A stretch of DNA of 64,000 bases from Gemmatimonadota bacterium. GTDB taxonomy: Bacteria > Gemmatimonadota > Gemmatimonadetes > Gemmatimonadales > GWC2-71-9. Positions within the stretch are counted from its first letter, which is position 1; each line of letters starts with the position of its first letter. The position numbers and the translations under genes were made by a program. The notes under the pieces are model-generated. The model was not told the origin of the DNA and searched no databases. It was given only the letters and a program-made list of their open reading frames with translations. The stretch is from assembly GCA_031400975.1 (NCBI GenBank), contig JANNQX010000131.1:761-64760 (forward strand). The letters run 5' to 3'. Below, in pieces: positions 17,085 through 30,083 of this stretch.

Positions 17085-17755
17085 CCGTCTGGCCGGTGTT
17101 GGTTGCCAGCGTGGTCGGCAGTCCGCACTGCGCGGCGATGTGCGGGTTAATCGCGGCCGGGGCCGGCCGGGGCACCGGCCTCCAATCCACCTACCATCTC
17201 GGGCGATTGACCGGGTACGCCCTGATCGGCGCCGTGGCGGGTGCCGTGGGCCAAGGGTTCAACCAAGCCGGCCTTTTCGTGGGGGTCGCGGGCGCCGCCA
17301 CGCAGCTCGCCGGATGGTTGTTGGTGCTGGCCGGCGTGACGGGGATCCTGGCCGCGTTCGGCGTCAGGATCGGCCCGGGGGCAACGGCCCATCGTTGGGC
17401 GATCGACCTTGCCGCCCGGATCGGTCATATCCCGCCCGGCCGTCGAGCCTTGGCCTTGGGGTTGATCACTGCGGTACTACCCTGTGGCTGGCTGCTCGCT
17501 TTCGTGGCGACGGCGGCCGGTGCAGGCACCCCGGCACTCGGGGCGGTCACCATGGCTGTGTTCTGGCTTGGCACGGTCCCACTGCTCGTTGCGGCGGGCG
17601 GTTTTATCCGGCGAGCCAGTGGGCCGCTCCGCCGGCGGCTCCCGCTCATCTCCGCCACGGCCCTCATCGTGTTGGGCATCGTGACCGTCGTCGCCCGGCC
17701 GACTCGCCCCTCACCCAACGCCGTTTCGCCTGGCCATGGCCACCTCGATCGCTGA
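17081..17755 (+). CDS. DsbD_2/TauE-like polytopic membrane protein (HCxxMCG motif)
   Basis: 224 aa from ATG 17081 (ATGA overlap with the fixH stop). Multi-TM protein with SPHCAAMCG near the N-terminus. It lies between fixH and ccoI. Confidence 0.6.
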   Translation: MTVWPVLVASVVGSPHCAAMCGLIAAGAGRGTGLQSTYHLGRLTGYALIGAVAGAVGQGFNQAGLFVGVAGAATQLAGWLLVLAGVTGILAAFGVRIGPGATAHRWAIDLAARIGHIPPGRRALALGLITAVLPCGWLLAFVATAAGAGTPALGAVTMAVFWLGTVPLLVAAGGFIRRASGPLRRRLPLISATALIVLGIVTVVARPTRPSPNAVSPGHGHLDR

Positions 17756-20156
17756 GGCGATCGATACGACGGTGGACTGCGTCCACTGCGGCCTCCCGGT
17801 CCTCCCGGGCGACCTCAGGCCGGAGGCGGATCAGCAGTTTTGCTGCTCCGGCTGCCGGACCGCCTGGGAGCTAATCAACGCCGCCGGCCTCTCCGCCTAC
17901 TATGCCGCGGATGACCGGCGGCGTGTTCCGGTTCGGCCCTCGGGCCGGCGATACGACGAATTCGACCACCCGACATTCACCCGGCTTTACGTTCGCGATG
18001 CCGGGGGCGGGATCCAGGAGACCGAGCTCTATCTCCAAGGCGTTCACTGCGCCTCCTGCGTTTGGCTGGTGGAACAGGTGCCGTTGCTCGTTGAGGGAGC
18101 GGTCCGGGCGGAACTGAATGTCCCCCGCTCGCTCGCTCGGATTCAGTGGGACCCCGCCCACACCTCCCTGGGGGCAATTGCGCGGTCCCTGGAGGCGTTA
18201 GGATATCCATCCCAACCCTTTCGTGGAGGACGAGCCGACCATCGACGCCGGGTCGAAGATCGCGCGATGCTGGTTCGAATCGGGATCGCGGGGGCCATTG
18301 CCATTAACGTGATGACGGTGGCGCTGGCGCTGTACGCCGGCTGGTTCGGCTCCATGGAGCCGGCCTACGTTCGTTACTTCCGCTGGATCAGTCTCGGGCT
18401 GACGGTGCCGGCGATCGGGTGGCCCGGCCGGGGATTCTTCACCAGCGCCTGGGCGGCATTGCGGGCCCGGCGCCTTCACATGGATGTGCCGATCGCCCTT
18501 GCGTTAGGTGCCGGCTTCATCCGGGGCGCCGTCAACACCGTGACCGACTCGGGGCCGATCTATTTCGACGGAGTCGTCACCCTGATCTTTCTGCTGTTGG
18601 TGGGCCGTTTCCTCCAGCAACGGGCCCAGCGGGCCGCCGCGGACTCGGCCGAACTGCTCCACGGCCTGACCCCATCGACAGCCCACCTGGTGGTCGGCGA
18701 ATCGATCGAAGAGGTTCCGGCCGAGTCGCTGGTTCCCGATGCCCTCGTTCTGGTCCGGGCCGGCGACCGGTTCCCGACTGACGGCATCGTGCTCGACGGG
18801 TGCTCGGGTGTTGACATGGCGTTGTTGACCGGTGAGTCGGCCCCGGTATCGGTCCGACCGGGCTCCCCCGTCTACGCCGGTACCACCAACACGTCAGCGG
18901 CCGTGAGAGTCCGGGTCACCGAAGCTGGGGAGACCACTCGGCTCGGCCGGATTCTCCAGGAACTCGAGGCGGCGATGAGCCGCCGGGCTCCGGTGGTTCA
19001 CACGACGGACCGGTTGGCGGGTTGGTTCGTCGCCGCCGTCCTGGTGCTTTCGGCAGCCACCTACCTGATCTGGCTCCAGATTGATCCAACGGTGGCCGTC
19101 GACCATGCGATTGCCCTCTTGATCGTGACGTGTCCTTGCGCGCTCGCGTTGGCCACCCCGCTCACCATGACGGTGGCCATCGGACGGGCCGCCAAGGCGG
19201 GCATGTTGATTCGGGGCGGCGACGCACTCGAGGTGCTGGCCCGCCCGGCGACGATGCTGCTCGACAAGACCGGCACACTCACCGAAGGCCGGTTGCGCCT
19301 GACGGACTGGCATGGTGACGACGCCCTCCGCGGTGCGGTGCTCGCCCTGGAGCAACACTCCAATCACCCGCTCGGCTCCGCCTTTGCCCGGGCATGGCCC
19401 GCCAGCAACGCGGCCGAGGTATCCGAAGTGCGGCAGACCGTCGGGGGCGGGATCACGGGCCGGGTGGCGGGACAGGACGTGGTGGTCGGCTCGCCGGCTT
19501 TCGTCCTGGCCCGGGCGTTCGACCCCCACCGGTTGGCCGACTCGTTGCCTGCCCATCTCACCCCGGTGCTGGTTGCCACCGGAGGAGTGGTGCGTGGTGC
19601 AGCCGGGTTTGGCGATCCGATTCGGCCGGATAGCGCCGCCGCATTAGCGGCGTTGCGGCGGGGCGGCTGGCGGATCGGAATTCTATCGGGCGACGCACCG
19701 GGGGTGGTGGCGGCGGCCGCGGCGGCGTTAGGCGTGTCCGGGGCCGACGCGAAAGGCGGGGCGGCCCCGGAAACGAAACTCGCGGAGGTTGAACGGCATT
19801 TGGCGGCCGGCCCCGTCGTGATGGTGGGCGACGGGGTCAATGATGCCCTGGCGATCGGCCGGGCCAGCGTCGGCATCGGGGTGCGGGGAGGAGCGGAGGC
19901 CTGCTTGGCGGCCGCCGACGTGTTCTTGGCCCGCCCCGGACTGACGCCGTTGGTGGATCTGATCGAAGGAGCCGACCGAACGCTGCGGGTCATCCGGCGG
20001 AACATCGCCGTTTCGATCGGCTACAACCTGATCGGCGCCGCCCTGGCGATTTCCGGCACGATCAACCCGCTGATCGCCGCCATCATGATGCCGGTCAGCT
20101 CGTTGACGGTGACCCTGCTTGCCTGGCGGAGCCAGACCTTTCGGACCCCGGCATGA
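17736..20156 (+). CDS. ccoI: copper-translocating P1B-type ATPase CcoI/FixI
   Basis: 806 aa with N-terminal Cys pairs (CVHCGLP, CCSGC), an HMA-like CASCV, TM motif CPCALALATP, DKTGTLTEG and VGDGVNDA. It occupies the ccoI position before ccoS. Confidence 0.9.
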   Translation: MATSIAEAIDTTVDCVHCGLPVLPGDLRPEADQQFCCSGCRTAWELINAAGLSAYYAADDRRRVPVRPSGRRYDEFDHPTFTRLYVRDAGGGIQETELYLQGVHCASCVWLVEQVPLLVEGAVRAELNVPRSLARIQWDPAHTSLGAIARSLEALGYPSQPFRGGRADHRRRVEDRAMLVRIGIAGAIAINVMTVALALYAGWFGSMEPAYVRYFRWISLGLTVPAIGWPGRGFFTSAWAALRARRLHMDVPIALALGAGFIRGAVNTVTDSGPIYFDGVVTLIFLLLVGRFLQQRAQRAAADSAELLHGLTPSTAHLVVGESIEEVPAESLVPDALVLVRAGDRFPTDGIVLDGCSGVDMALLTGESAPVSVRPGSPVYAGTTNTSAAVRVRVTEAGETTRLGRILQELEAAMSRRAPVVHTTDRLAGWFVAAVLVLSAATYLIWLQIDPTVAVDHAIALLIVTCPCALALATPLTMTVAIGRAAKAGMLIRGGDALEVLARPATMLLDKTGTLTEGRLRLTDWHGDDALRGAVLALEQHSNHPLGSAFARAWPASNAAEVSEVRQTVGGGITGRVAGQDVVVGSPAFVLARAFDPHRLADSLPAHLTPVLVATGGVVRGAAGFGDPIRPDSAAALAALRRGGWRIGILSGDAPGVVAAAAAALGVSGADAKGGAAPETKLAEVERHLAAGPVVMVGDGVNDALAIGRASVGIGVRGGAEACLAAADVFLARPGLTPLVDLIEGADRTLRVIRRNIAVSIGYNLIGAALAISGTINPLIAAIMMPVSSLTVTLLAWRSQTFRTPA

Positions 20157-20338
20157 CGATCCTATTCATTTTGGTACCGGTGGCGTTGGGCATTGTGCTG
20201 ATCAGCGTGATCGGCTTCGTCTGGGCCACCCGACAAGGCCAGTTCGATGACCTCGAGACACCAGCGCTCCGGATGCTCCGCGACGAAGCGGTGAGGGCGG
20301 CCCCCGCCGCCCCCAAGGCCCCGGCGGACAGCCCTTAA
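20153..20338 (+). CDS. ccoS: cbb3 oxidase maturation protein CcoS
   Basis: 61 aa. MTILFILVPVALGIVLISVIGFVWATRQGQFDDLE matches the CcoS pattern (single TM helix plus GQ(F/Y)DD). Confidence 0.85.
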   Translation: MTILFILVPVALGIVLISVIGFVWATRQGQFDDLETPALRMLRDEAVRAAPAAPKAPADSP

Positions 20339-21414
20339 CGTACCGGCTGGCGCCGCTCGAGGTAGTTTTCCCGCTCTCGGGCGATGGCGTTGAGCAACGG
20401 GAGGGGTTCAAACCGGACCGGATCGGTGCACGGCAACCCGGTCTCCTCCGTGGCCGCACGACAGGCGGAGCGGGCCTCGTCCTCGGAGAGATCGTAGGTG
20501 TTGAGGCAGATGCCGATCACCTTCGTCGGATGGACCGCGGAACCCAGCATCTCGTACATCTCGACGTAGCGCGAGAGGGGCGGGATCTTGAGCCACGGCG
20601 CGGTCCGGTATTCGCCGATGTGTTCGCGAGTGGCCTGGTGGCAGAGGATCAGCGCATCGGGGCAACTCCCGTGGAGGAGCCCAAGCGTCACCCCGGAGTA
20701 GCCAGGGTGGTTGATGCTGCCCTGCCCCTCAACGAGCACGATATCGGCGTCTTTCGCTCCCCGCAACACAAGTTCCTCCGCCGCCCCGGCGATGAAGTCG
20801 GCGATCACGGCGTCGACCGCGGTGCCCCAGCCTTCGATGAAGATTCCGGTTTGGCCGGTGGCGACGAAGTTGGTTCGAAGCCCCCGCGCCTTGAGGCCGG
20901 TGGTCAGCTGCAGCTGGGCGGTCATCTTGCCCACGTTGCAGTCGGTCCCCACCGTCAACACCACGAACGGATCGACCAGGCGAGCCATGCCGGCGGCTAT
21001 CGGGATGTTCTTCGGCGCCTTCCGGGCGTCGGTTATCGACCGCCCGTGTTTGGCGGCCAGCGCCGCCAGTTCAGCATCGTCCGAAATAAAGGTGTGGAGG
21101 CCGCTAATGATGTCGCAGCCAGCGGCCAACCCCTTGGCCAACCATTCCCGCCAATCCTCCGGCAGCTTCCCGCCGGCCGGGGCTATCCCGATCATGATCG
21201 CGGTCGGCTTCAAGGCCAGCCCGGCCTCAATCGAACCGACCACCGGAATCGTCCCGCCAAACCCAAGAACATCCTGGACGGTTTTTCCGGCGGCCACCCG
21301 ATCAAGAACCGCCACGACCCTCGTGGGGTGGTACCGAACCACCGAGTTCGCGGTTTTCGACTCGAGGGGATGGAAGGCGCCATCAGCGAGAATGAGGAAG
21401 CGGGGGTCAGCCAT
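20335..21414 (-). CDS. DUF1611-family protein
   Basis: 359 aa. The N-terminus (ILADGAF....KTA..V.RY) and a P-loop-like core (VLTVGTDCNVGKMT) resemble DUF1611 proteins. The assignment rests on recalled family features only. Confidence 0.6.
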   Translation of the reverse strand: MADPRFLILADGAFHPLESKTANSVVRYHPTRVVAVLDRVAAGKTVQDVLGFGGTIPVVGSIEAGLALKPTAIMIGIAPAGGKLPEDWREWLAKGLAAGCDIISGLHTFISDDAELAALAAKHGRSITDARKAPKNIPIAAGMARLVDPFVVLTVGTDCNVGKMTAQLQLTTGLKARGLRTNFVATGQTGIFIEGWGTAVDAVIADFIAGAAEELVLRGAKDADIVLVEGQGSINHPGYSGVTLGLLHGSCPDALILCHQATREHIGEYRTAPWLKIPPLSRYVEMYEMLGSAVHPTKVIGICLNTYDLSEDEARSACRAATEETGLPCTDPVRFEPLPLLNAIARERENYLERRQPVR

Positions 21415-21460
21415 AGAATCCGAAAACCTGTCGGTTGATTGAACGGGCGCTGCGAATGGT

Positions 21461-21474
21461 ATACAAATTTGTAT
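21461..21474. promoter_or_regulatory. perfect 14-bp A/T-rich palindrome ATACAAATTTGTAT (candidate operator)
   Basis: The sequence at 21461-21474 is its own reverse complement. It sits 47 nt upstream of the DUF1611 start (21414) and 49 nt downstream of the pspA stop (21523), in an otherwise G+C-rich spacer. Confidence 0.4.
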
Positions 21475-21522
21475 CCGACGACCCCGCCGGTCAAGTGGCG
21501 CGCCCCCGTTCAGGGGGGATCG

Positions 21523-22281
21523 CTACTTCAAATCGTCGTCGATGACTTCGGCGTCGTGAACGGTGGTTTCGCCTTTGCCCAGCTGCTTGGTGTCGCCGGA
21601 GCCCTTCCCCAACATCCCCATCTTGGACTTGAGGTCGAGGAGCTGTTGGTCGGCAGAACCCTTGTATTCCAATTGCTTGAACTGGGCCGCCAGGTCGTCG
21701 CTTTGGAACTCCTGCTGGAGTTCGGCTGAGGCCAGGGCCTTCCGCTCGATGGCCTCGATCTTCTCGGCCATCCGGTCAAAGGATTCGAAGGCGCTCTTGT
21801 CCGACATCCCGGACATCGTTTCTTGAATCCGCTGCTGCGCCTCGGCCCGTTTGGCACGCGCCACGAGGATGTTCTTCTTCCGCTTCGCTTCCTCAATCTT
21901 TTCGTTGAGTTGGCGGAGCTGGACCTTGAGATTCTCGGTCTCGGCTTTGTGCTTGACCCACGTCTCGTGGAGTTGGGTCGCGCCCTGGAGCGCTTCGTTG
22001 TACCGGAGCAGCGCTTGCTTGGCGAGGTCGTCGCGGCCCTCCTGGACCGCGAGCATGGCCCGTCGTTCCCAGTCTTCCGACAGTTTCTTGAGCGCCTCGG
22101 CGTCAGCTCCGAGCTTCTTTTCGTCGGCGATGGCGCCGGCCGCTTCTTGCTTGGCCTTGGCCAGATTCGACTTCATGTCGAGAATCAACTGGTTCAGCAT
22201 TTTCTCGGGGTTTTCGGCCCGAGAGATGAGGTCGTTGATGTTCGACTTCAACATGGTCGAGAAGCGTTCAAACATTCCCAT
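21523..22281 (-). CDS. pspA: PspA/IM30-family protein
   Basis: 252 aa. The N-terminus MGMFERFSTMLKSNINDLISRAENPEKMLNQLILDM is the canonical PspA/IM30 start, followed by long coiled-coil sequence. Confidence 0.93.
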   Translation of the reverse strand: MGMFERFSTMLKSNINDLISRAENPEKMLNQLILDMKSNLAKAKQEAAGAIADEKKLGADAEALKKLSEDWERRAMLAVQEGRDDLAKQALLRYNEALQGATQLHETWVKHKAETENLKVQLRQLNEKIEEAKRKKNILVARAKRAEAQQRIQETMSGMSDKSAFESFDRMAEKIEAIERKALASAELQQEFQSDDLAAQFKQLEYKGSADQQLLDLKSKMGMLGKGSGDTKQLGKGETTVHDAEVIDDDLK

Positions 22282-22287
22282 TGCGTC

Positions 22288-22683
22288 TTACCTTTCCCGG
22301 TACGGCGCCAAGGCGCTCAAATGCGATGATAGCGCCAAAGTCAGCGAATCGAAACTAGCCTCAAACTCGGAAAAATCGAGATTCTCGAGTTCGAGAGCGT
22401 CGGTCAACACCACTTGATTGCCCTCAATCCCGTACGACCCATGGATGAGATCGCGAGCATTAAACTCGAGCAACTGCCGGAAGAGGCCGCCCTGGCGATC
22501 GGCCCCGGCCGGCGGTTCCATCACCCGGACTCGAAGGATGGCCACCGGCGGTGCGAACGTCACGACGACTTCGGCGCCTTCGTGGCTTTTGATGACCCAG
22601 AGTCCCGGCTCGACTTCCCGAGAGTCAGCGGTGCCGCCCTCGAGGCGGTCAATGAAGGACTGCAAATCTTCTTTGGTAACCAT
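22288..22683 (-). CDS. YbjN/CesT-like (secretion-chaperone-like) small acidic protein
   Basis: 131 aa, 6 nt upstream of pspA. The pattern (…FIDRL…WVIKSHEGAEVVVTF…LFRQLLEFNARDLIHGSYGIEGNQVVLTDALELENLD..EF) resembles the YbjN/T3SS-chaperone-like fold family. The assignment is from memory. Confidence 0.55.
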   Translation of the reverse strand: MVTKEDLQSFIDRLEGGTADSREVEPGLWVIKSHEGAEVVVTFAPPVAILRVRVMEPPAGADRQGGLFRQLLEFNARDLIHGSYGIEGNQVVLTDALELENLDFSEFEASFDSLTLALSSHLSALAPYRER

Positions 22684-22760
22684 GCGACTCCCTCTTCAAG
22701 GATCGGGCCACTCCATCGGCCGCGGGAAACTCCCGCCGCCAGGGGGCCTACCGCAACCAG

Positions 22761-23099
22761 CTATGCCGAATCGGACTCGCTCTGGCGACGTTGGGCCAGC
22801 ATCCGCTCCGAAAAATCCGTCCGCTCTTCGAGCTCGGTAATCCGAGTCCGCAGATCGTCGAGTTCGTTCAACACCTGCTCGGGCGGGAGCTCACTGCCAC
22901 CGCCGCCCCGGATTCGCTCGGCGATTGCTAGGCCGAGCGGCCCCCGAAGCACGATGGTGGCCCCGATCGCCCCGATGATCGTGACCGGGATGGCGTATCC
23001 CGGTCCGAGCGCGACCGACATGATCCCGTGAGCCACCAGGGCCGCCACCGAGCCGCCCACGATCGCTACGATCGGAAGGCTTCGCCGATCCTGATTCAT
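22761..23099 (-). CDS. PspB-like array paralog 7 (two hydrophobic segments, GPLGLAIAERIRG, EERTDFSERML)
   Basis: 112 aa. Its ATG overlaps the upstream paralog's TGA (ATGA at 23096-23099). It shares the juxtamembrane and C-terminal motifs of the array. Confidence 0.75.
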   Translation of the reverse strand: MNQDRRSLPIVAIVGGSVAALVAHGIMSVALGPGYAIPVTIIGAIGATIVLRGPLGLAIAERIRGGGGSELPPEQVLNELDDLRTRITELEERTDFSERMLAQRRQSESDSA

Positions 23100-23368
23100 C
23101 GCGGGGTATTCTCCGACATCGGTTCCGCCTCACCGCCCTTGAGGAGGACTCGCTCGGTGAAATCGAGCCGCTCCTCCATTTCCTGGACCCGGCTCTCTAA
23201 CAGCGCAATCCGCTCGGCTGCCATCTCACCGGTGGAAAGGCCGGTGCTTGGGTCTTTCTTTTCGCCGGCGATCCGCCGCCCAATTGCTTGACCCATCGGG
23301 CCGACGAACAACGCGACAACCATGGCCCCGATCGAGCCAAAGAGCGCGAAAAAACCCAACTCACCCAT
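23096..23368 (-). CDS. PspB-like array paralog 6 (GPMGQAIGRRIAG, GLSTGEMAAE, EERLDFTERVL)
   Basis: 90 aa from ATG 23368 (MGELGFFALFG...). The ORF track instead starts at TTG 23383. It has one N-terminal hydrophobic helix. Confidence 0.75.
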   Translation of the reverse strand: MGELGFFALFGSIGAMVVALFVGPMGQAIGRRIAGEKKDPSTGLSTGEMAAERIALLESRVQEMEERLDFTERVLLKGGEAEPMSENTPR

Positions 23369-23501
23369 GAGCGCGATCTCCAATCAAACGCTGCTCCATT
23401 TCACTCCAATGTGCCGCGTCCACTTGCCCCGACGAGAGGCCCGTCTCCGCCACAGCGCCCATCCGTTTGAACGCCCGATGCCGGCGCTTGAACCAACTCA
23501 T
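23361..23501 (-). CDS. 46-aa TM-less mini-paralog of the array (below the ORF-track length cutoff)
   Basis: Manual translation gives MSWFKRRHRAFKRMGAVAETGLSSGQVDAAHWSEMEQRLIGDRAHG. The start ATG 23501 overlaps the upstream TGA (ATGA). The stop at 23361-23363 overlaps the next paralog's start. Its first 12 nt are identical to the start of the 130-aa paralog. Confidence 0.45.
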   Translation of the reverse strand: MSWFKRRHRAFKRMGAVAETGLSSGQVDAAHWSEMEQRLIGDRAHG

Positions 23502-23890
23502 GGCCGCTCTCGACCGGCCGGCAAGGCCCGCTCGCCGGTGCCCTGGGCCAGCATCCGCTCAGCAAAGTCGAGACGTTCCTCGAGCTCGAGCATCCGGGCC
23601 TCGTTGGTTTCCAGTTCGGCCACCCGAGTTTCCAGTTCTTCGAGCCGGGCGGCCGCCATCTGGCCGGTGGAGAGGCCAACCGACGGATCGGAGGCCAATT
23701 GCTTCAACCCGCGCTGCCGACGCCAGGCAAGCAACGCAACCGAACTCCCCGCCACTAAGAACATCAGGCTTTCGTTCCTTGAGGAGTGGGGCAGGACCGA
23801 GGACATGAATCCCATCGCCATGCCGGTCAGCACCACATGGACGGCGAGATCAAAGAAATCGAGGCCGAGGTTCTTCCGGAACCAACTCAT
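23498..23890 (-). CDS. PspB-like array paralog 5 (two TM segments, GLSTGQMAAA, EERLDFAERML)
   Basis: 130 aa. Its ATG overlaps the upstream TGA (ATGA at 23887-23890). It lacks the GPxG..A..RI motif but keeps the C-terminal motif. Confidence 0.75.
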   Translation of the reverse strand: MSWFRKNLGLDFFDLAVHVVLTGMAMGFMSSVLPHSSRNESLMFLVAGSSVALLAWRRQRGLKQLASDPSVGLSTGQMAAARLEELETRVAELETNEARMLELEERLDFAERMLAQGTGERALPAGRERP

Positions 23891-24162
23891 CGTGGCAGCC
23901 CCTTCGAGTGGTCCTTCGCCTCGAGCACGAGGCGCTCGGCAAAGTCGAGCCGCTCGGCCAATTCCGCCCGCTCGTGCTCGCCGGCGGCCAGCCGGGCTTC
24001 GAGGTCGTTCAACCGGGCTTCGAGTTCCGGTGAGGCCCCCAGGTTGCCCTCGATCCGCCGAGCCAATGCCCGCCCGAGCGGGCCTCGGAAAATCAGCACC
24101 GCACCCGTGATCAGGGCGAACAGGGAAAACATGATCGTCGGCGCCACGTCTCCCGGATCCAT
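23887..24162 (-). CDS. PspB-like array paralog 4 (GPLGRALARRIEG, AERLDFAERLV)
   Basis: 91 aa from ATG 24162 (MDPGDVAPTIMFSLFALITGAVLIF...), 1 nt after the upstream TAG. The ORF-track start at 24240 would overlap the previous gene. Confidence 0.75.
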   Translation of the reverse strand: MDPGDVAPTIMFSLFALITGAVLIFRGPLGRALARRIEGNLGASPELEARLNDLEARLAAGEHERAELAERLDFAERLVLEAKDHSKGLPR

Positions 24163-24163
24163 G

Positions 24164-24508
24164 CTATTTCTCCCGTGCGATCGCGGCCTGTTCGCGGCCT
24201 TGCGCCAACAGCCGCTCGGAAAAGTCGACCCGTTCCTCAAGCTCGGCCATCCGGTCCTGGACCCCTTCGAGCTCGGCCACCCGAGTCCGGAGGTGATCGA
24301 TTTCGGCCGCCAGGCCGGCGTCCACGCTCTTGCCTTCGATCCGGCGGGCCAGCGCCTTGATCAGCGGCGCCAAGATCACACCCGCTAAGATCAACCCGAC
24401 GATAATCACGAGCCCGATGATCACCTTCTCCGGGGGGCCCGATTGGAACGCGTCCGGCGGCATTTGTGGCATCGGCGGCATCGGCGGCATCGGCGCTATG
24501 ACTTGCAT
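24164..24508 (-). CDS. PspB-like array paralog 3 (MPP-repeat N-terminus, APLIKALARRIEG, EERVDFSERLL)
   Basis: 114 aa. Its ATG lies 1 nt after the upstream TGA. It has one TM helix (VIIGLVIIVGLILAGVIL). Confidence 0.75.
   Translation of the reverse strand: MQVIAPMPPMPPMPQMPPDAFQSGPPEKVIIGLVIIVGLILAGVILAPLIKALARRIEGKSVDAGLAAEIDHLRTRVAELEGVQDRMAELEERVDFSERLLAQGREQAAIAREK
24456..24500 (-). repeat. imperfect 9-bp tandem repeat (GGCGGCATC-like, about 5 units) encoding (M/I)PP repeats
   Basis: The + strand reads GGCGGCATT TGTGGCATC GGCGGCATC GGCGGCATC GGCGCTATG. On the minus strand this encodes APMPPMPPMPQMPP at the N-terminus of paralog 3. Confidence 0.7.
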
Positions 24509-24509
24509 C

Positions 24510-24779
24510 TCAGCCCTCCGGCTGTTTCAGGGCACTCGGTTCGGTCCGGCTCGCCACCAAGCGTTCGGTAAAGTCGAGGCGTTCATTCACTTCAGCCAAT
24601 TCCTCACGAAGCCGGTCGATTTCCTCGAGCACCCCGGGGTCGGTTCCCTGGAGCGCCGCCATCGCCCCCGGCGTTTCGCCCCTGATCCTCGCCGCGATCG
24701 CCTTGCCGATTGGGCTATAGGCAACCAAACCCAGGGTCGCGCCCCCAAAGATGAAGATGATCGCGAGGATGTCTTCCAT
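24510..24779 (-). CDS. PspB-like array paralog 2 (SPIGKAIAARIRG, NERLDFTERLV)
   Basis: 89 aa with one N-terminal hydrophobic helix (ILAIIFIFGGATLGLVAY). It lies 20 nt downstream of paralog 1. Confidence 0.75.
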   Translation of the reverse strand: MEDILAIIFIFGGATLGLVAYSPIGKAIAARIRGETPGAMAALQGTDPGVLEEIDRLREELAEVNERLDFTERLVASRTEPSALKQPEG

Positions 24780-24799
24780 GATTCGCTACCGGCCGGCGG

Positions 24800-25096
24800 T
24801 CATGGACGTTTGGCCCCGGAGTCGGCCTCAGTCCGCTGAGCCAGGAGCCGTTCACTGAAGTCGAGCCGCTCCTCGGCCTCACCCAGACGTTGGCTGAGTT
24901 CTTCCACCTGACTCCGAAGCTCGAGGACTTCATGGAGCACTTCTGGATCCCCGCCTCCCGATTTGGCCTGAATTCGCCGGGCCAGGGCTTGGCCAACCGG
25001 GCCCTGGAACACCCGGATGACGGCCCACGCAACAAAACCGGTCCCGATGACCCCGGTGAGCATGCCGACTAATGGTATGATTGTTTCAGGGCCCAC
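24800..25096 (-). CDS. PspB-like array paralog 1 (GPVGQALARRIQA, EERLDFSERLL)
   Basis: 98 aa with a GTG start preceded by GGAAGG. It has one N-terminal hydrophobic helix (IIPLVGMLTGVIGTGFVAWAVI). Confidence 0.75.
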   Translation of the reverse strand: MGPETIIPLVGMLTGVIGTGFVAWAVIRVFQGPVGQALARRIQAKSGGGDPEVLHEVLELRSQVEELSQRLGEAEERLDFSERLLAQRTEADSGAKRP

Positions 25097-25225
25097 TTGG
25101 CTCGCCTTCCGTAACTCAATGAATAACAGCTATTTATCCGGTATGCACGCGGGGACCTGGGCCGCTCGATCGGGATTGTCCCAGCCTACGTCCCAATGTT
25201 GCAGGATGTTTCATTCCTTGCAACG

Positions 25226-25441
25226 TCAGACCAATTCAACGGCTTCAATGCTCGTCAGGCTTACCACGACCTCGGTTTCGTCGTCATCGACGGGATGGAG
25301 ATAGACCTCGAGCGCCGCCGGATGGTCGTCGACCGCAATGGGGATGCCGAGCACCGACTGGCCCTCCGTTGTGGTAATCCGGACGACCCGTTCGGCACCG
25401 ACGGCAAAGCCCAACAGCTCGATGATGGTCCGGTACTCCAC
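25226..25441 (-). CDS. hypothetical 71-aa acidic protein, coupled to the upstream kinase gene
   Basis: The GTG start shares one nucleotide with the kinase TAG stop (TAGTG). I recognise no family for it. Confidence 0.5.
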   Translation of the reverse strand: MEYRTIIELLGFAVGAERVVRITTTEGQSVLGIPIAVDDHPAALEVYLHPVDDDETEVVVSLTSIEAVELV

Positions 25442-27228
25442 TAGGTTCCCCGGTTGAGCCGGCGAGGGCCGGCACTCGGGGTACCAAACACCGCCTGCGA
25501 TCGAAAGTGGCCGCCCAGCTCCCCGAGCAACTCCGCAAGTTCTTCGGTGGCCTTCCGAAGGCTGTACCGGTAGAGCCAGCGATACCAGCCCAGTGATGCG
25601 GCCCCGAAGGCGCCCCCGACGGCGAGAGCCGGCCCCGCCGCCAGCGCCCCCAGACCCATGGCACCGACGGCGGCCGCGCCCCCGATGCCGCCGCCGAGCA
25701 TCCCTAGGACGGCAGCAATGCCTTTGCTCAGCTTCCAGTTGGCCCGCAGCCCGGGGCGGAGATCGCCATAGCAGCGGACCTCGGTACCGCCCTGGGCCAC
25801 CGGTCGAACGGTCACGTTCAGTACCCGAAGCTCGATTCCGGTCATCCGATAGGAGAACATCGACAGCCCCTGCCCGCCGACCGACGTGCCCATCTTGAGC
25901 TGGGGTACATCGAAGACCAAGACGCCGCCGTCCAGCGGGTGACCCCCCACGGTATCCCGGAGGGTGAGCCGGTAGGGGAACTGCGCAAACAACTGCCCAA
26001 TCGCCGCGAGGACCTCCTGGGGTGTACCCGCGACGTTGGTCACCGCGCTAATCGTTCGGAGTTCGGTCCCGAGCATTCGGCTCCATCGACGCTCGTCGCC
26101 GGGGGAGGCTTGAGCCGCCACGACCGAGCGGGTATCCTGGCGTTCGGCCATCGCCAGCGCGACAAACTCCGGACCGATCCCGGCTTCTTTCGCGGCACTC
26201 TCGACGTCCCGAACCCGATACCCGCCAGACGGGGTGAGGCGAACCTGATCCGGCCGGGTATCGGCCGCCCGATATCGGGCTTGGAGTCGGGTCGCCGCCT
26301 CGGCCTGGAGTTCGGCCGCCCGCTGCCAAATGGCCCGCGCTTCTTCCTCGGAGACCACCGCCGGGTTGGTTTCGGTGTCGACCCGGGGGGACTCTTCGAC
26401 GGCCTCGGTCAGCGCATCGGCCAGCGCTTCGCCGGTGGGATATCGCGCCGACGGATCCTTGGCGAGGCAGCGATCGATGACCAGGGCGAGGGCGGCCGGG
26501 ACATCCGGAGCAGCCATGCGGACCGGCGGTGCCGGCTCGACGGCATGCTGGACGATCACGGCTGATGCCTTCTCGGCATCAAAGGGAAGCCTGCCCGTTA
26601 GGCACTGATACCCGACCACGCCGAGGGTGTAGATGTCGCTTCGCCCGTCGAGGTCATCGCCGGCGATTTGTTCGGGACTCATGTAGTGCACCGAACCAAG
26701 CACGAGTCCGTCCAAGGTCAGCCGGCTGGTGCGGGTGTCTCGGGCAATCCCGAAGTCGGTAACCACAACCCGCCCCGACGCCTTCTCGATCATCAAGTTT
26801 TCGGGTTTGACATCCCGGTGGATCACGCCGCGGGCATGGGCGTAGGCAAGAGCCCACGCCGCTTCGCGAAGGACCCGGACCGTTTCGAGCGGCGAGAGCG
26901 CCCCGAGCCGCCGAAGCCGGTCGGCCAGGGACTCCCCGTCTACGAATCCCATCACGAAGAAGGCATGGCCGGCGATTTCGTCGGCCCGGTAGACGGGGAC
27001 AATATTGGGGTGCGAGAGCTTGGCGGCGGTGCGGGCCTCACGAAGGAACCGTTCGCGGTGGTCGCCGGACTCGGCCAGCAGTGGAGGCAACACTTTGATC
27101 GCGACCAAGCGATCGAGGCGGACGTCGCGAGCCAAGTAGACGACGCCCATCCCGCCGCGACCGAGTTCCCGTTCGATCAGGTATTGGCCCTCGAGCAGGG
27201 CCGAGAGCGGGCTGGGCGTCTCGGTCAT
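25441..27228 (-). CDS. Ser/Thr protein kinase with C-terminal uncharacterised domain and Gly-rich membrane segment
   Basis: I chose the start at ATG 27228 ([35 protein letters not shown]), which overlaps the uvrA TGA as ATGA. Hanks motifs are present: AIK, HRDVKPEN, DFG, SPE. The C-terminus contains GMLGGGIGGAAAVGAMGLGALAAGPALAVGGAFGAASLGWY. Confidence 0.9.
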   Translation of the reverse strand: MTETPSPLSALLEGQYLIERELGRGGMGVVYLARDVRLDRLVAIKVLPPLLAESGDHRERFLREARTAAKLSHPNIVPVYRADEIAGHAFFVMGFVDGESLADRLRRLGALSPLETVRVLREAAWALAYAHARGVIHRDVKPENLMIEKASGRVVVTDFGIARDTRTSRLTLDGLVLGSVHYMSPEQIAGDDLDGRSDIYTLGVVGYQCLTGRLPFDAEKASAVIVQHAVEPAPPVRMAAPDVPAALALVIDRCLAKDPSARYPTGEALADALTEAVEESPRVDTETNPAVVSEEEARAIWQRAAELQAEAATRLQARYRAADTRPDQVRLTPSGGYRVRDVESAAKEAGIGPEFVALAMAERQDTRSVVAAQASPGDERRWSRMLGTELRTISAVTNVAGTPQEVLAAIGQLFAQFPYRLTLRDTVGGHPLDGGVLVFDVPQLKMGTSVGGQGLSMFSYRMTGIELRVLNVTVRPVAQGGTEVRCYGDLRPGLRANWKLSKGIAAVLGMLGGGIGGAAAVGAMGLGALAAGPALAVGGAFGAASLGWYRWLYRYSLRKATEELAELLGELGGHFRSQAVFGTPSAGPRRLNRGT

Positions 27229-30083
27229 TCGAGCGAGGCGCCCTTCCCAACCAGTCGGTGGAGAAACCGGCCGGTGTGGCTTTCCTTGACGGTCGCAACG
27301 TGCTCCGGGGTACCGGCGGCCACCACCAAGCCGCCTTTGGTCCCTCCTTCGGGCCCCAAGTCGACGACCCAATCGGCCGTCTTGATCACATCGAGATTGT
27401 GCTCGATCACCAGCACACTGTTCCCCTTGTCAACGAGCCGATGGAGCACCTCGAGGAGTACCCGAACGTCCTCGAAGTGAAGGCCCGTCGTGGGCTCGTC
27501 AAGGATGTACAAGGTTCGGCCGGTGTCTCGCTTCGACAATTCAGTGGCCAGCTTGACCCGCTGGGCTTCACCCCCCGACAGGGTGGTCGCGGCCTGCCCA
27601 AGATGAAGGTAGCCCAGACCGACGTCGTTGAGGAGTTCGAGTTTTTCGCGAATCCGCCCCTGGGCGGAGAAGAACTCGAGCGCGTCCGACACGGTCAATT
27701 CGAGCACGTCGGCAATGCTCCGGCCTTTGTAACGGACCTCGAGGGTTTCGCGGTTGTACCGTTTGCCCCGGCAGACTTCGCAGGGGACGTAGACGTCGGG
27801 CAGGAAGTGCATCTCGATCTTGACCAGGCCATCGCCTTCACAGGACTCGCAGCGGCCGCCTTTGACATTGAACGAGAAACGCCCGGGGCCGTAGCCCCGC
27901 ATTTTCGCTTCCGGCAACTGGGCGAAGAGGTCGCGAATCGGGGCAAAGAGGCCGGTGTAGGTCGCCGGGTTGGAGCGGGGCGTCCGCCCGATCGGGCTTT
28001 GATCGACGTCAATGACTTTGTCGAGTTGATCGAGCCCTTCGATCGTCCGGTGCGCACCCGGCACCACCTTGGCCCGGAAGAAATGCCGAGCCAGTGAATG
28101 GTAGAGGATGTCGGTAATCAAGGTCGACTTTCCCGAGCCCGACACGCCGGTGACGGTGGTGAGGACGCCTAACGGGAACTCGACCGTGAGGTTTCGCAAA
28201 TTGTTCGCTTTGGCGCCGACGACCCGAAGGACCCGCTTGGGGTCCACCGGCCGACGCTTGACGGGCAACGGGATCCGAAGCTCGCCCCGAAGGTATCTTC
28301 CGGTCAGGGACTCGGCGTGGTCGACCACCGACTGGACCACGCCCTCCACGATGACTTCGCCGCCGAATCGGCCCGCCCTGGGCCCGAGATCGACCACGTA
28401 GTCCGCGGCCCGAATCGTGTCTTCGTCGTGCTCGACCACCAGGACCGTGTTGCCCAGATCGCGAAGTTCCTTGAGTGTCTTGAGGAGGCGGTCGTTGTCG
28501 CGCTGGTGGAGGCCGATGCTGGGCTCATCGAGGATGTAGAGTACGCCAACCAGCCGGGACCCGATCTGGGTCGCCAGCCGGATCCGTTGGGCCTCACCAC
28601 CGGAGAGCGATCCCGACCCCCGCCCTAGCGTTAGGTATTCCAGGCCCACGTCACGCAGAAACGTTAGCCGGTCGTGGACTTCTTTGAGAATTGGCCCGCC
28701 GATGTCGGGATCGATGCTCCCGACCTTGCTTCGACCGATCGCGATCCCGCTAAAGAACACCAGCGCCTCGTCCACCGAAAGGTCAACCACTTCACCGATG
28801 CTCTTGCCGGCCACCAGAACCGCGAGGCTCTCGGGTTTGAGCCGCCGGCCATGGCAGGTCCGGCAGGGCATTTCCACCATGAACTCGCCCAGTTGTTGGC
28901 GGATGGCGTCGCTTTGGGTTTCATAGAACCGGCGCTCGACGTTCTTGAGGATCCCTTCCCAGCCTGATTCGTAGTCGCCCTTGATCTTGGGACCGTCCAG
29001 CTGAAACTTGAACGTCTTCCCCGGCGCACCTCGAAGGAGCATGTCCTTCACGGTGGCACCGAGCGACCTCCATGGCGCATCCAGATCGAACTTGTAAAGC
29101 TTGGCCAAGGTCGGAAGGATCACCTTCCGGAGATAGCCGGTCGGCTCACCCCACGGCAGAATCACCCCCTCGAGGATCGAAAGACTCGGGTCTCCGACCG
29201 CGAGTTCCTGGACTGATTCTCGGCGGGTGCCGAGGCCGTGACAATCGGGGCAGACCCCAAAGGGTGAATTGAAGGAAAACTGGCGGGGCTCGAGCTCCGG
29301 CATCGAAAGCCCGCACTCCGGGCAAGCGAACCGCTCAGAGAACACCACCGATTTGCTTCCGGCTCCGTGGCGAACGACCTCGACAACCCCCTCCGCCACT
29401 TTGAGGGCGGTCTCGATCGAGTCATTGATCCGGGACCGGTCGGCCGCCCGGACCACCAGCCGATCGACCACGACGGCCACATCGTGATTCTGCCGTCGGT
29501 TGAGCTTCGGCACCGCGGTCAGGTCGTAGGTTTCGCCGTCGACCCGGACCCGGACGAATCCCCGCTTGGCCAGATCCTCGAACAGCTCGCGAAACTCGCC
29601 CTTCCGGCCCCGAACGATCGGGCCGAGGATCTCAATCCGGGTATCCGGGGGCCAGGCCGAGACCGCCTCCGCAATCTGGGCCGCACTGGAGCGGGCAACT
29701 GGCGACCCGTCGTTCGGGCAATGGGGCGTCCCGGCCCGGGCCCAGAGGAGCCGCATGTAATCGTAGATCTCGGTTACGGTCCCAACGGTCGACCGCGGAT
29801 TGTTCCCAGTGGACTTCTGCTGGATCGAAATCGCCGGGGACAGGCCTTCGATGGCGTCGACATCCGGTTTTTCCATCAGGCCAAGGAATTGCCGGGCGTA
29901 CGCCGACAGCGACTCCACATACCGACGTTGGCCTTCGGCGTAGATGGTATCAAACGCGAGCGAGGACTTACCCGAGCCCGACAAACCGGTGATGACGGTC
30001 AGTTGGTTTCGGGGAATGGTGACGTTGATGTTCTTGAGATTGTGCTCGCGGGCACCGCGGACGCGAAGGTATTCCTGGGCCAT
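27225..30083 (-). CDS. uvrA: excinuclease ABC subunit A
   Basis: 952 aa starting [55 protein letters not shown]. It has two ABC modules and Zn-finger Cys clusters. Confidence 0.97.

Follow-up and report, generated by a model that had tools for sequence, protein, structure and literature searches.

Within a 64,000-nt stretch of the Gemmatimonadota bacterium contig JANNQX010000131.1 (assembly GCA_031400975.1, forward-strand positions 761 to 64,760), hereafter the window, we identified an array of seven tandem genes for small membrane proteins that runs into a CesT/Tir-like gene and pspA and is preceded by a predicted promoter of the extracytoplasmic function (ECF) sigma factor type. The paralogues constitute a large unannotated protein family, and the operon as a whole (promoter, g1–g8, cesT-like gene and pspA) is typical of the Gemmatimonadales. 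With moderate confidence we read it as an ECF-controlled, Psp-type (phage shock protein) envelope-stress operon, in which mini-proteins with an external N-terminus and a cytoplasmic coiled coil would form the membrane partner set of PspA, as anchor or as sensor. The features are given below with the positions of the window; gene numbering skips g6, class letters refer to the paralogue classes described further on and related loci are labelled L001 and so forth.

25187–25213, minus strand: predicted ECF-sigma-type promoter TGAAACATCCTGCAACATTGGGACGTA, with the −35 element TGAAAC at 25213–25208 and the −10 element CGTA at 25190–25187, ∼90 nt upstream of g1
24800–25096, minus strand: g1, 98 aa, class G, single transmembrane (TM) helix, GTG start; matches the family hidden Markov model (HMM) at 2.9e-33; collinear orthologues in L002, L004–L007 and L011
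24510–24779, minus strand: g2, 89 aa, class C (part of the minimal C-B-A core), single TM helix; ratio of non-synonymous to synonymous substitution rates (dN/dS) 0.07 against the L001 orthologue
24164–24508, minus strand: g3, 114 aa, class B, extended at its N-terminus by a Pro-rich (periplasmic) stretch; dN/dS 0.17
23887–24162, minus strand: g4, 91 aa, class D, single TM helix; dN/dS 0.25; the member modelled with AlphaFold2 (AF2)
23498–23890, minus strand: g5, 130 aa, class F, two TM helices, without the GPxG motif and with a GLSTGQMAA motif; dN/dS 0.27
23361–23501, minus strand: open reading frame (ORF) of 46 aa, probable remnant, lacking both a TM helix and the ERxDFxER motif
23096–23368, minus strand: g7, 90 aa, class A, single TM helix; alternative TTG start at 23383; dN/dS 0.14
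22761–23099, minus strand: g8, 112 aa, class A, two TM helices, last gene of the array; dN/dS 0.18
22288–22683, minus strand: CesT/Tir-like chaperone-fold protein, 131 aa, PF22550 match
21523–22281, minus strand: PspA/IM30 family protein, 252 aa, PF04012 match

The seven full-length paralogues (89–130 aa) and the ORF of 46 aa lie head to tail between 25096 and 22761, as read from an ORF listing and directly from the sequence. Their junctions in transcription order are 20 nt, 1 nt, 1 nt, ATGA, ATGA, an 8-nt overlap and ATGA, after which gaps of 77 nt and 6 nt lead to the cesT-like gene and to pspA, respectively. A preliminary description of this DNA had given the same ORFs, size range, outer coordinates and junctions, all of which we reproduced, and the translational coupling that it proposed is supported; an ATGA overlap into cesT occurs in about a third of the related loci. 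The recurring DNA motif that it had pointed out was likewise recovered: the back-translated C-terminal protein motif, GARCGNNTNGAYTTYNNNGARCG, matches seven times in the window (at 22804, 23151, 23556, 23933, 24213, 24562 and 24849), whilst 100 shuffles gave an expectation of none. As the DNA repeats of the array are only 60–77 % identical, the duplications are old. A shorter tandem repeat of 18 nt at 24455–24490 encodes the Pro-rich N-terminus of g3 (PMPPMPPMPQMPP), and this periplasmic extension is conserved in the class B orthologues.

The same description had counted eight mini membrane proteins, of which the seven full-length genes stand. In a DNA alignment the first 11 nt of the 46-aa ORF are those of g5 (start ATGAGTTGGTT), and the ancestral junction of g5 with g7 is also retained; the ORF is absent from the closest relative, L001. 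Its best matches fall in the central region of class F orthologues, with both TM helices and the C-terminal motif missing. It is probably a decayed, internally deleted duplicate of g5 and not an eighth member.

Residues invariant in all seven full-length paralogues include E..ER.DF.ER, and a juxtamembrane motif, GPxGxAxxRRI, is found in six of them and is absent from the 130-aa g5, in keeping with the preliminary description, as are the two hydrophobic segments present in g5 and g8. Searches of the seven against Pfam, NCBIfam, PHROG and PADLOC returned no family above threshold, only generic coiled-coil and TM noise. A profile built from them nevertheless matched more than 3279 proteins in a set of 5.8 billion sequences. 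Among the 120 matches listed none carried a Pfam domain, those with an organism in the source name were Gemmatimonadales or Gemmatimonadetes hypothetical proteins, and a few Joint Genome Institute entries bore generic function names such as PilO. An HMM search of 1.84 billion cluster representatives (50 % identity) gave 3106 matches at E ≤ 1e-3 and 877 at E ≤ 1e-10, and nearly all of the 150 best matches listed were 77–136 aa in length. Every named or located family member came from Gemmatimonadota. The dN/dS values for six pairs of window and L001 orthologues ranged from 0.07 to 0.27; the paralogues are under purifying selection and are real genes. An origin as a mobile-element gene or holin is unsupported, a tblastn search against phage and plasmid collections having returned no match. 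Additionally, a few matches of the HMM search comprise two or three family units per chain (P0266, 262 aa with three matched stretches; P0329, 182 aa with two). These may be natural fusions or frameshifted gene calls and, if real, would support hetero-oligomerization.

The architecture of these proteins was examined in a structural model and in family-wide residue statistics. The AF2 model of g4, built with 119 homologues, reached a predicted local distance difference test score (pLDDT) of 86.8 and contains helices at residues 3–26 (TM), 28–38 (juxtamembrane, GPLGRALARRIEG) and 45–87 (one long helix). We then took 443 motif-anchored family segments from the window and from 79 related loci, the latter obtained by scanning one genome per species, and numbered positions relative to the invariant Arg. 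Hydrophobic residues occupy positions −13, −10, −6, −3, +1, +4 and +8, an a/d heptad pattern, with hydrophobic residues in at least 95 % of segments at −13, −6, −3, +1 and +8, in 79 % at −10, and with small residues at +4. The invariant R falls at heptad position g and the invariant E five residues later at e, the classical interhelical pair of parallel coiled coils, whilst the invariant D and F face outward. This heptad and e/g charge pattern fits a putative parallel coiled-coil oligomer. The mean number of K/R residues was 0.30 before the last TM helix compared with 2.63 after it, which places the C-terminal coiled coil in the cytoplasm, where PspA and the CesT-like protein also reside. The predicted plan comprises an N-terminus outside, one TM helix (two in class F and in the last class A member), a basic juxtamembrane helix (GPxGxAxARRIxG), a short linker and, on the cytoplasmic side, a coiled coil that spans ∼3.5 heptads and closes with the invariant E-R-x-D-F-x-E-R-L-L. 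The plan of TM helix plus coiled coil put forward earlier is thus upheld by the pLDDT of the model, the heptad pattern and the positive-inside bias. A Foldseek search of the g4 model against the PDB gave no match, and a sequence-profile search of the PDB returned only coiled coils of the GCN4/SYNZIP type, at E ≥ 0.04.

The two genes downstream of the array were assigned by profile searches. PspA matched PF04012 (PspA_IM30) with 157.8 bits (E=4.1e-46) over essentially its full length (residues 2–219 against model positions 1–216 of 220), which confirms the identity first proposed for it; its match to TIGR02977 (7.8e-41) lies below the equivalog cut-off, and the protein is 62–96 % identical across loci. 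The 131-aa protein had been termed YbjN/CesT-like. The second half of that label holds, with a match to PF22550 (CesT_Tir_1) at 85.3 bits against a cut-off of 27 bits (E=4.5e-24), whereas the match to the YbjN model PF10722 is sub-threshold (19.6 bits, cut-off 22 bits). Within this protein a strongly conserved LELENLDFSEFEASF segment (22351–22395, minus strand) resembles the ELEERLDFSERLL motif of the paralogues; the likeness may come with the CesT fold itself or may reflect mimicry.

All 79 loci of the comparison came from Gemmatimonadota, and in 73 of them an array of 2–14 copies preceded a CesT-like gene or pspA, co-directionally and at a distance of ≤ 198 nt; the remaining six comprised two loci cut by a contig end and four solo copies. 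Family copy number ranged from one to 14 per locus (median five). Both the conserved linkage to pspA and the copy-number variation for which the preliminary description had suggested a survey are therefore present in related genomes. The CesT-like gene directly followed the array in 63 of the 79 loci, and the gap between cesT and pspA was almost always 3–9 nt, usually 6 nt. With start codons in the compared loci set by a heuristic, ATGA was the commonest junction within arrays (151 of 347), and the last array gene overlapped cesT (gap ≤ 0) in 24 of the 63 loci, 21 of these by ATGA. In a deep lineage without cesT, the PspA of which is 62–71 % identical to that of the window, the array still adjoined pspA and kept the invariant motif; the adjacency of array and pspA thus survives loss of cesT, as it does upstream insertions. 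The same layout emerged from independent gene calls in L080.

Reciprocal best hits were collinear between the window and related loci, and community clustering of the reciprocal-best-hit graph resolved seven paralogue classes that recur in a conserved order. The order in the window, G-C-B-D-F-A-A, is common to its close relatives, and the smallest arrays have the order C-B-A. Such collinear orthologues and recurring, ordered classes indicate that the paralogues are ancient, individually conserved lineages and not recent amplifications.

A promoter motif accompanies the array with similar regularity. The pattern TGAAAC-N17-CGTA has its sole match in the 64-kb window upstream of g1. The motif was found by aligning the regions upstream of the first array gene and, counted with a slightly relaxed pattern, it occurs within 300 nt upstream of that gene in 60 loci, out of 65 in which the sequence reached far enough upstream, the expected background being 0.0014 per 330 nt. 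Of the five loci that lack it, at least two (L055 and L077) reflect over-extended start calls. The same elements, −35 TGAAAC and −10 CGTA, define the ECF promoters of the sigmaW type in Bacillus subtilis (PMC5758882), and the copy in the window agrees with the spacing of 16–17 nt taken as the criterion for such promoters. Between the array and cesT or pspA no promoter of this type was found except in two loci of a lineage without cesT (L022, 11441–11467; L042, 2030–2056), where a second TGAAAC-N17-CGTA stands directly upstream of pspA; in these, array and pspA would be co-regulated even if transcribed separately.

Several observations weigh against the reading of the mini-proteins as PspA partners in an ECF-controlled operon. 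The promoter is a consensus match to B. subtilis sigmaW-type elements and as such a sequence-level prediction, a crude regular-expression search found no ECF sigma factor gene in the window, the junction counts depend on heuristic start codons, and a copy number that varies from two to 14 argues against a complex of fixed stoichiometry. Further points favour an explanation that dispenses with PspA altogether, in which the array would form a membrane coiled-coil system of its own (such as a scaffold of the GspM, FtsB or ATP-synthase-b type) that neighbours cesT-pspA only through synteny inherited within the Gemmatimonadales. The flanks are indeed broadly syntenic in this order (window positions 17736–21414 and 27225–30083), with uvrA upstream and DUF1611, FixS and P-type ATPase genes downstream, and since the whole region from uvrA to fixS and the ATPase is kept together, the adjacency of array and pspA is in part inherited synteny within one order. 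Moreover, a gap of 33–198 nt separates the array from cesT in most loci (∼60 %), solo family members occur far from any pspA in unrelated contexts (L039, 9986–10273; L060, 9911–10246), and every sampled locus belongs to a single phylum. We nevertheless consider this explanation rather unlikely. Against it stand the overlaps of the last array gene with cesT, most of them ATGA, and an adjacency that outlasts both loss of cesT and upstream insertions. No promoter of the same type intervenes between array and cesT, the L022/L042 exception itself implies co-regulation, and a scan for generic sigma-70 promoters and terminators gave nothing above chance, including for terminator-like sites inside the operon.

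Two side observations concern these neighbourhoods. The P-type ATPase copy in the window looks to be of the heavy-metal/CcoI type by sequence. By eye, one solo member adjoins SpmA/B-like nucleoside-recognition membrane genes and the other an MgtC-like gene, and no common context was found for the two in L039 and L060.

A second explanation keeps the link with PspA and makes the mini-proteins mainly regulators instead of anchors, that is, tethered modulators of an ECF sigma/anti-sigma pathway or of PspA polymerization, with a feedback like that of PspB/C on PspA-PspF. ECF-type promoters are typical of autoregulated stress circuits, the cytoplasmic helix bears an invariant charged epitope (E, R, D, F, E, R) that hints at a specific soluble partner, and PspB/C and LiaF offer a precedent for dual roles (PMC11237479). 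In disagreement with this are the lack of a sigma or anti-sigma gene in the operon or window by crude search and the lack of any zinc-finger or anti-sigma domain in the proteins, whilst seven to 14 paralogues would be unusual for a regulator; we hold such a primarily regulatory role to be distinctly improbable. With regard to the regulation of the operon itself, the preliminary description had noted the absence of pspF, which agrees with the failure of a crude regular-expression search to find a GAFTGA enhancer-binding protein in the window, but it had missed the conserved ECF-type promoter. By eye, no sigma-54 −24/−12 element is present upstream of g1. The PspC model matched none of the operon proteins above its cut-off (the window was not scanned ORF by ORF), no PspC or LiaF domain was found in the gene calls of 12 kb of L080, and positions 20000–28000 gave no match in Rfam.

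The preliminary description had called the paralogues PspB-like and the locus an expanded Psp-type module. Read as homology, this would make them true, if highly divergent, PspB proteins in an expanded classical PspB-PspA system. The likeness in architecture stands: in PspB and the paralogues alike, a chain of ∼75–130 aa begins with a TM helix and continues in a cytoplasmic helix. Profile comparisons also offer something in favour of homology, as TIGR02976 (PspB) is the NCBIfam model matched by most members (49 of 119, best E 4.8e-4), three window paralogues match it at E=0.006–0.14, and an hhalign comparison pairs RVAELEERLD with RIQALESILD. No member, however, reaches the cut-off of 51.7 bits, the best window paralogue scoring 16.9 bits. 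GspM is matched about as often (48 of 119, best 3e-5), and CcmI (29), RacA (28) and MtrG are matched too; the matches to TIGR02976 are therefore of a generic TM-plus-coiled-coil kind and non-specific. Of the 129 Pfam families matched at E ≤ 1, the 25 listed as matched most often do not include PF06667 (PspB). The hhalign probability between the family (119 sequences) and PspB (21 sequences) is 6 % over 22 columns, with a PspB profile that is shallow (Enterobacteriaceae only; effective number of sequences, Neff, 1.45). As PspB also lacks the GPxGxAxARRI and ERxDFxER motifs, and the operon lacks pspC and pspF and has an ECF-type rather than a sigma-54 promoter, we regard PspB ancestry as very doubtful; on profile evidence the likeness appears to be one of architecture and not of demonstrable descent.

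To our knowledge, the targeting of PspA/IM30/Vipp1 proteins to damaged membrane is understood in only a few model organisms. The known membrane partners of PspA differ between these and are mutually unrelated, namely PspB/C, LiaI, YdjG/H and PspM. With the PspB of Escherichia coli and Yersinia (PF06667, TIGR02976) the mini-proteins have in common that they are small bitopic inner-membrane proteins with an N-terminal TM helix and a leucine-zipper-like cytoplasmic helix, encoded in an operon with pspA. They differ from it in their motifs and in the lack of significant similarity, in comprising 2–14 ancient paralogues instead of one gene, in lying upstream of pspA where the PspB gene lies downstream, and in the absence of PspC and of PspF/sigma-54. 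Duplications of PspB in psp operons have been reported (PMC11237479). In B. subtilis, sigmaW controls the pspA-ydjGHI operon, and recruitment of PspA depends on the membrane proteins YdjG/H encoded there (PMC8581546). This operon, together with LiaI-LiaH, resembles the present locus in that small membrane proteins are co-encoded, and pspA-ydjGHI in that an ECF-type promoter (TGAAAC/CGTA) governs the pspA operon. YdjG (zinc ribbon plus TM), YdjH (TPM domain) and LiaI (LiaI-LiaF-TM domain) are, in contrast, unrelated to the paralogues in sequence and domains; moreover, no SPFH/flotillin partner is present here, and a paralogue array that precedes pspA replaces the single genes.

The preliminary description had considered the locus undescribed, and this requires division. 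A pairing of CesT/Tir and PspA is an already described neighbourhood (Ravi et al., 2024, mSystems; PMC11237479), which the present PF22550 gene resembles in directly preceding pspA in the same orientation, at a distance of 6 nt in the window. The described dyads occur alone or with operons for band-7/flotillin, AAA+ ATPase, YqiJ/YuaF or spermine synthase (PMC11237479). No described family or paper covers the array: neither Ravi et al. (2024; PMC11237479) nor Popp et al. (2022; PMC9239133) mentions Gemmatimonadota or tandem TM-coiled-coil arrays, and a full-text literature search for Gemmatimonad together with phage shock protein yielded nothing relevant. The placement of a paralogue array before cesT-pspA is thus real, conserved across the order and apparently undescribed.

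Two genes upstream of the array were considered as further members of the module and rejected. An acidic ORF of 71 aa (25226–25441, minus strand) belongs to no Pfam family and is conserved in 51 of the 79 loci, usually 21–305 nt upstream of the array. Some genomes have it beside uvrA, with serine dehydratase genes between it and the array, and the ECF promoter lies downstream of it; the ORF is probably not in the operon. A word-indexed search returned only three homologues for it, and its AF2 model, all-beta with a pLDDT of 52.5, is too poor to use. Further upstream, a Ser/Thr kinase gene (25441–27372, minus strand; Pkinase, 1e-46) recurs upstream of the array only in L028, L047 and L052. Its sequence suggests a C-terminal membrane region, and its stop codon overlaps the start of the 71-aa ORF by 1 nt (TAGTG).

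Returning to the reading that we favour, that of a PspA membrane partner set, we infer the following mechanism. The mini-proteins would assemble through their common coiled coil into homo- or hetero-oligomeric, membrane-anchored bundles, and these bundles would be the membrane-embedded partner of PspA, serving as anchor, as recruitment platform and possibly as stress sensor. The CesT/Tir-like protein could act as a cytoplasmic assembly chaperone, and the whole unit would be turned on under stress by an ECF sigma factor in place of PspF/sigma-54. By analogy, the set may take the place of PspB/PspC in E. coli and of LiaI and YdjG/YdjH in B. subtilis, without homology to any of them. More speculatively, and to be entertained as a tentative possibility, the mini-proteins may be combinatorial adaptors, so far confined to Gemmatimonadota, that hetero-oligomerize under ECF-sigma control and, at the inner membrane, serve as template or nucleus for the ESCRT-III-like polymer of PspA. 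They would then be a new class of membrane receptor for ESCRT-III/PspA proteins, with paralogue number (2–14) tuning the type of damage recognized. The C-terminal motif does not fit, by eye, a reading as an ESCRT-III MIM1-like element.

The model predicts that transcription starts near 25180, that envelope stress induces the operon, and that the paralogues contact PspA or the CesT-like protein via the invariant ERxDFxERLL epitope. As candidate PspA partners, the locus contributes a large family without annotation (3106 clusters at 50 % identity). Its genetic form is unusual, ordered arrays of ancient paralogues being translationally coupled to a CesT-like chaperone and PspA downstream of an ECF-type promoter that is nearly universal. 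The definition of a new family would be justified for the Gemmatimonadota, in which experimental cell biology is very scarce.

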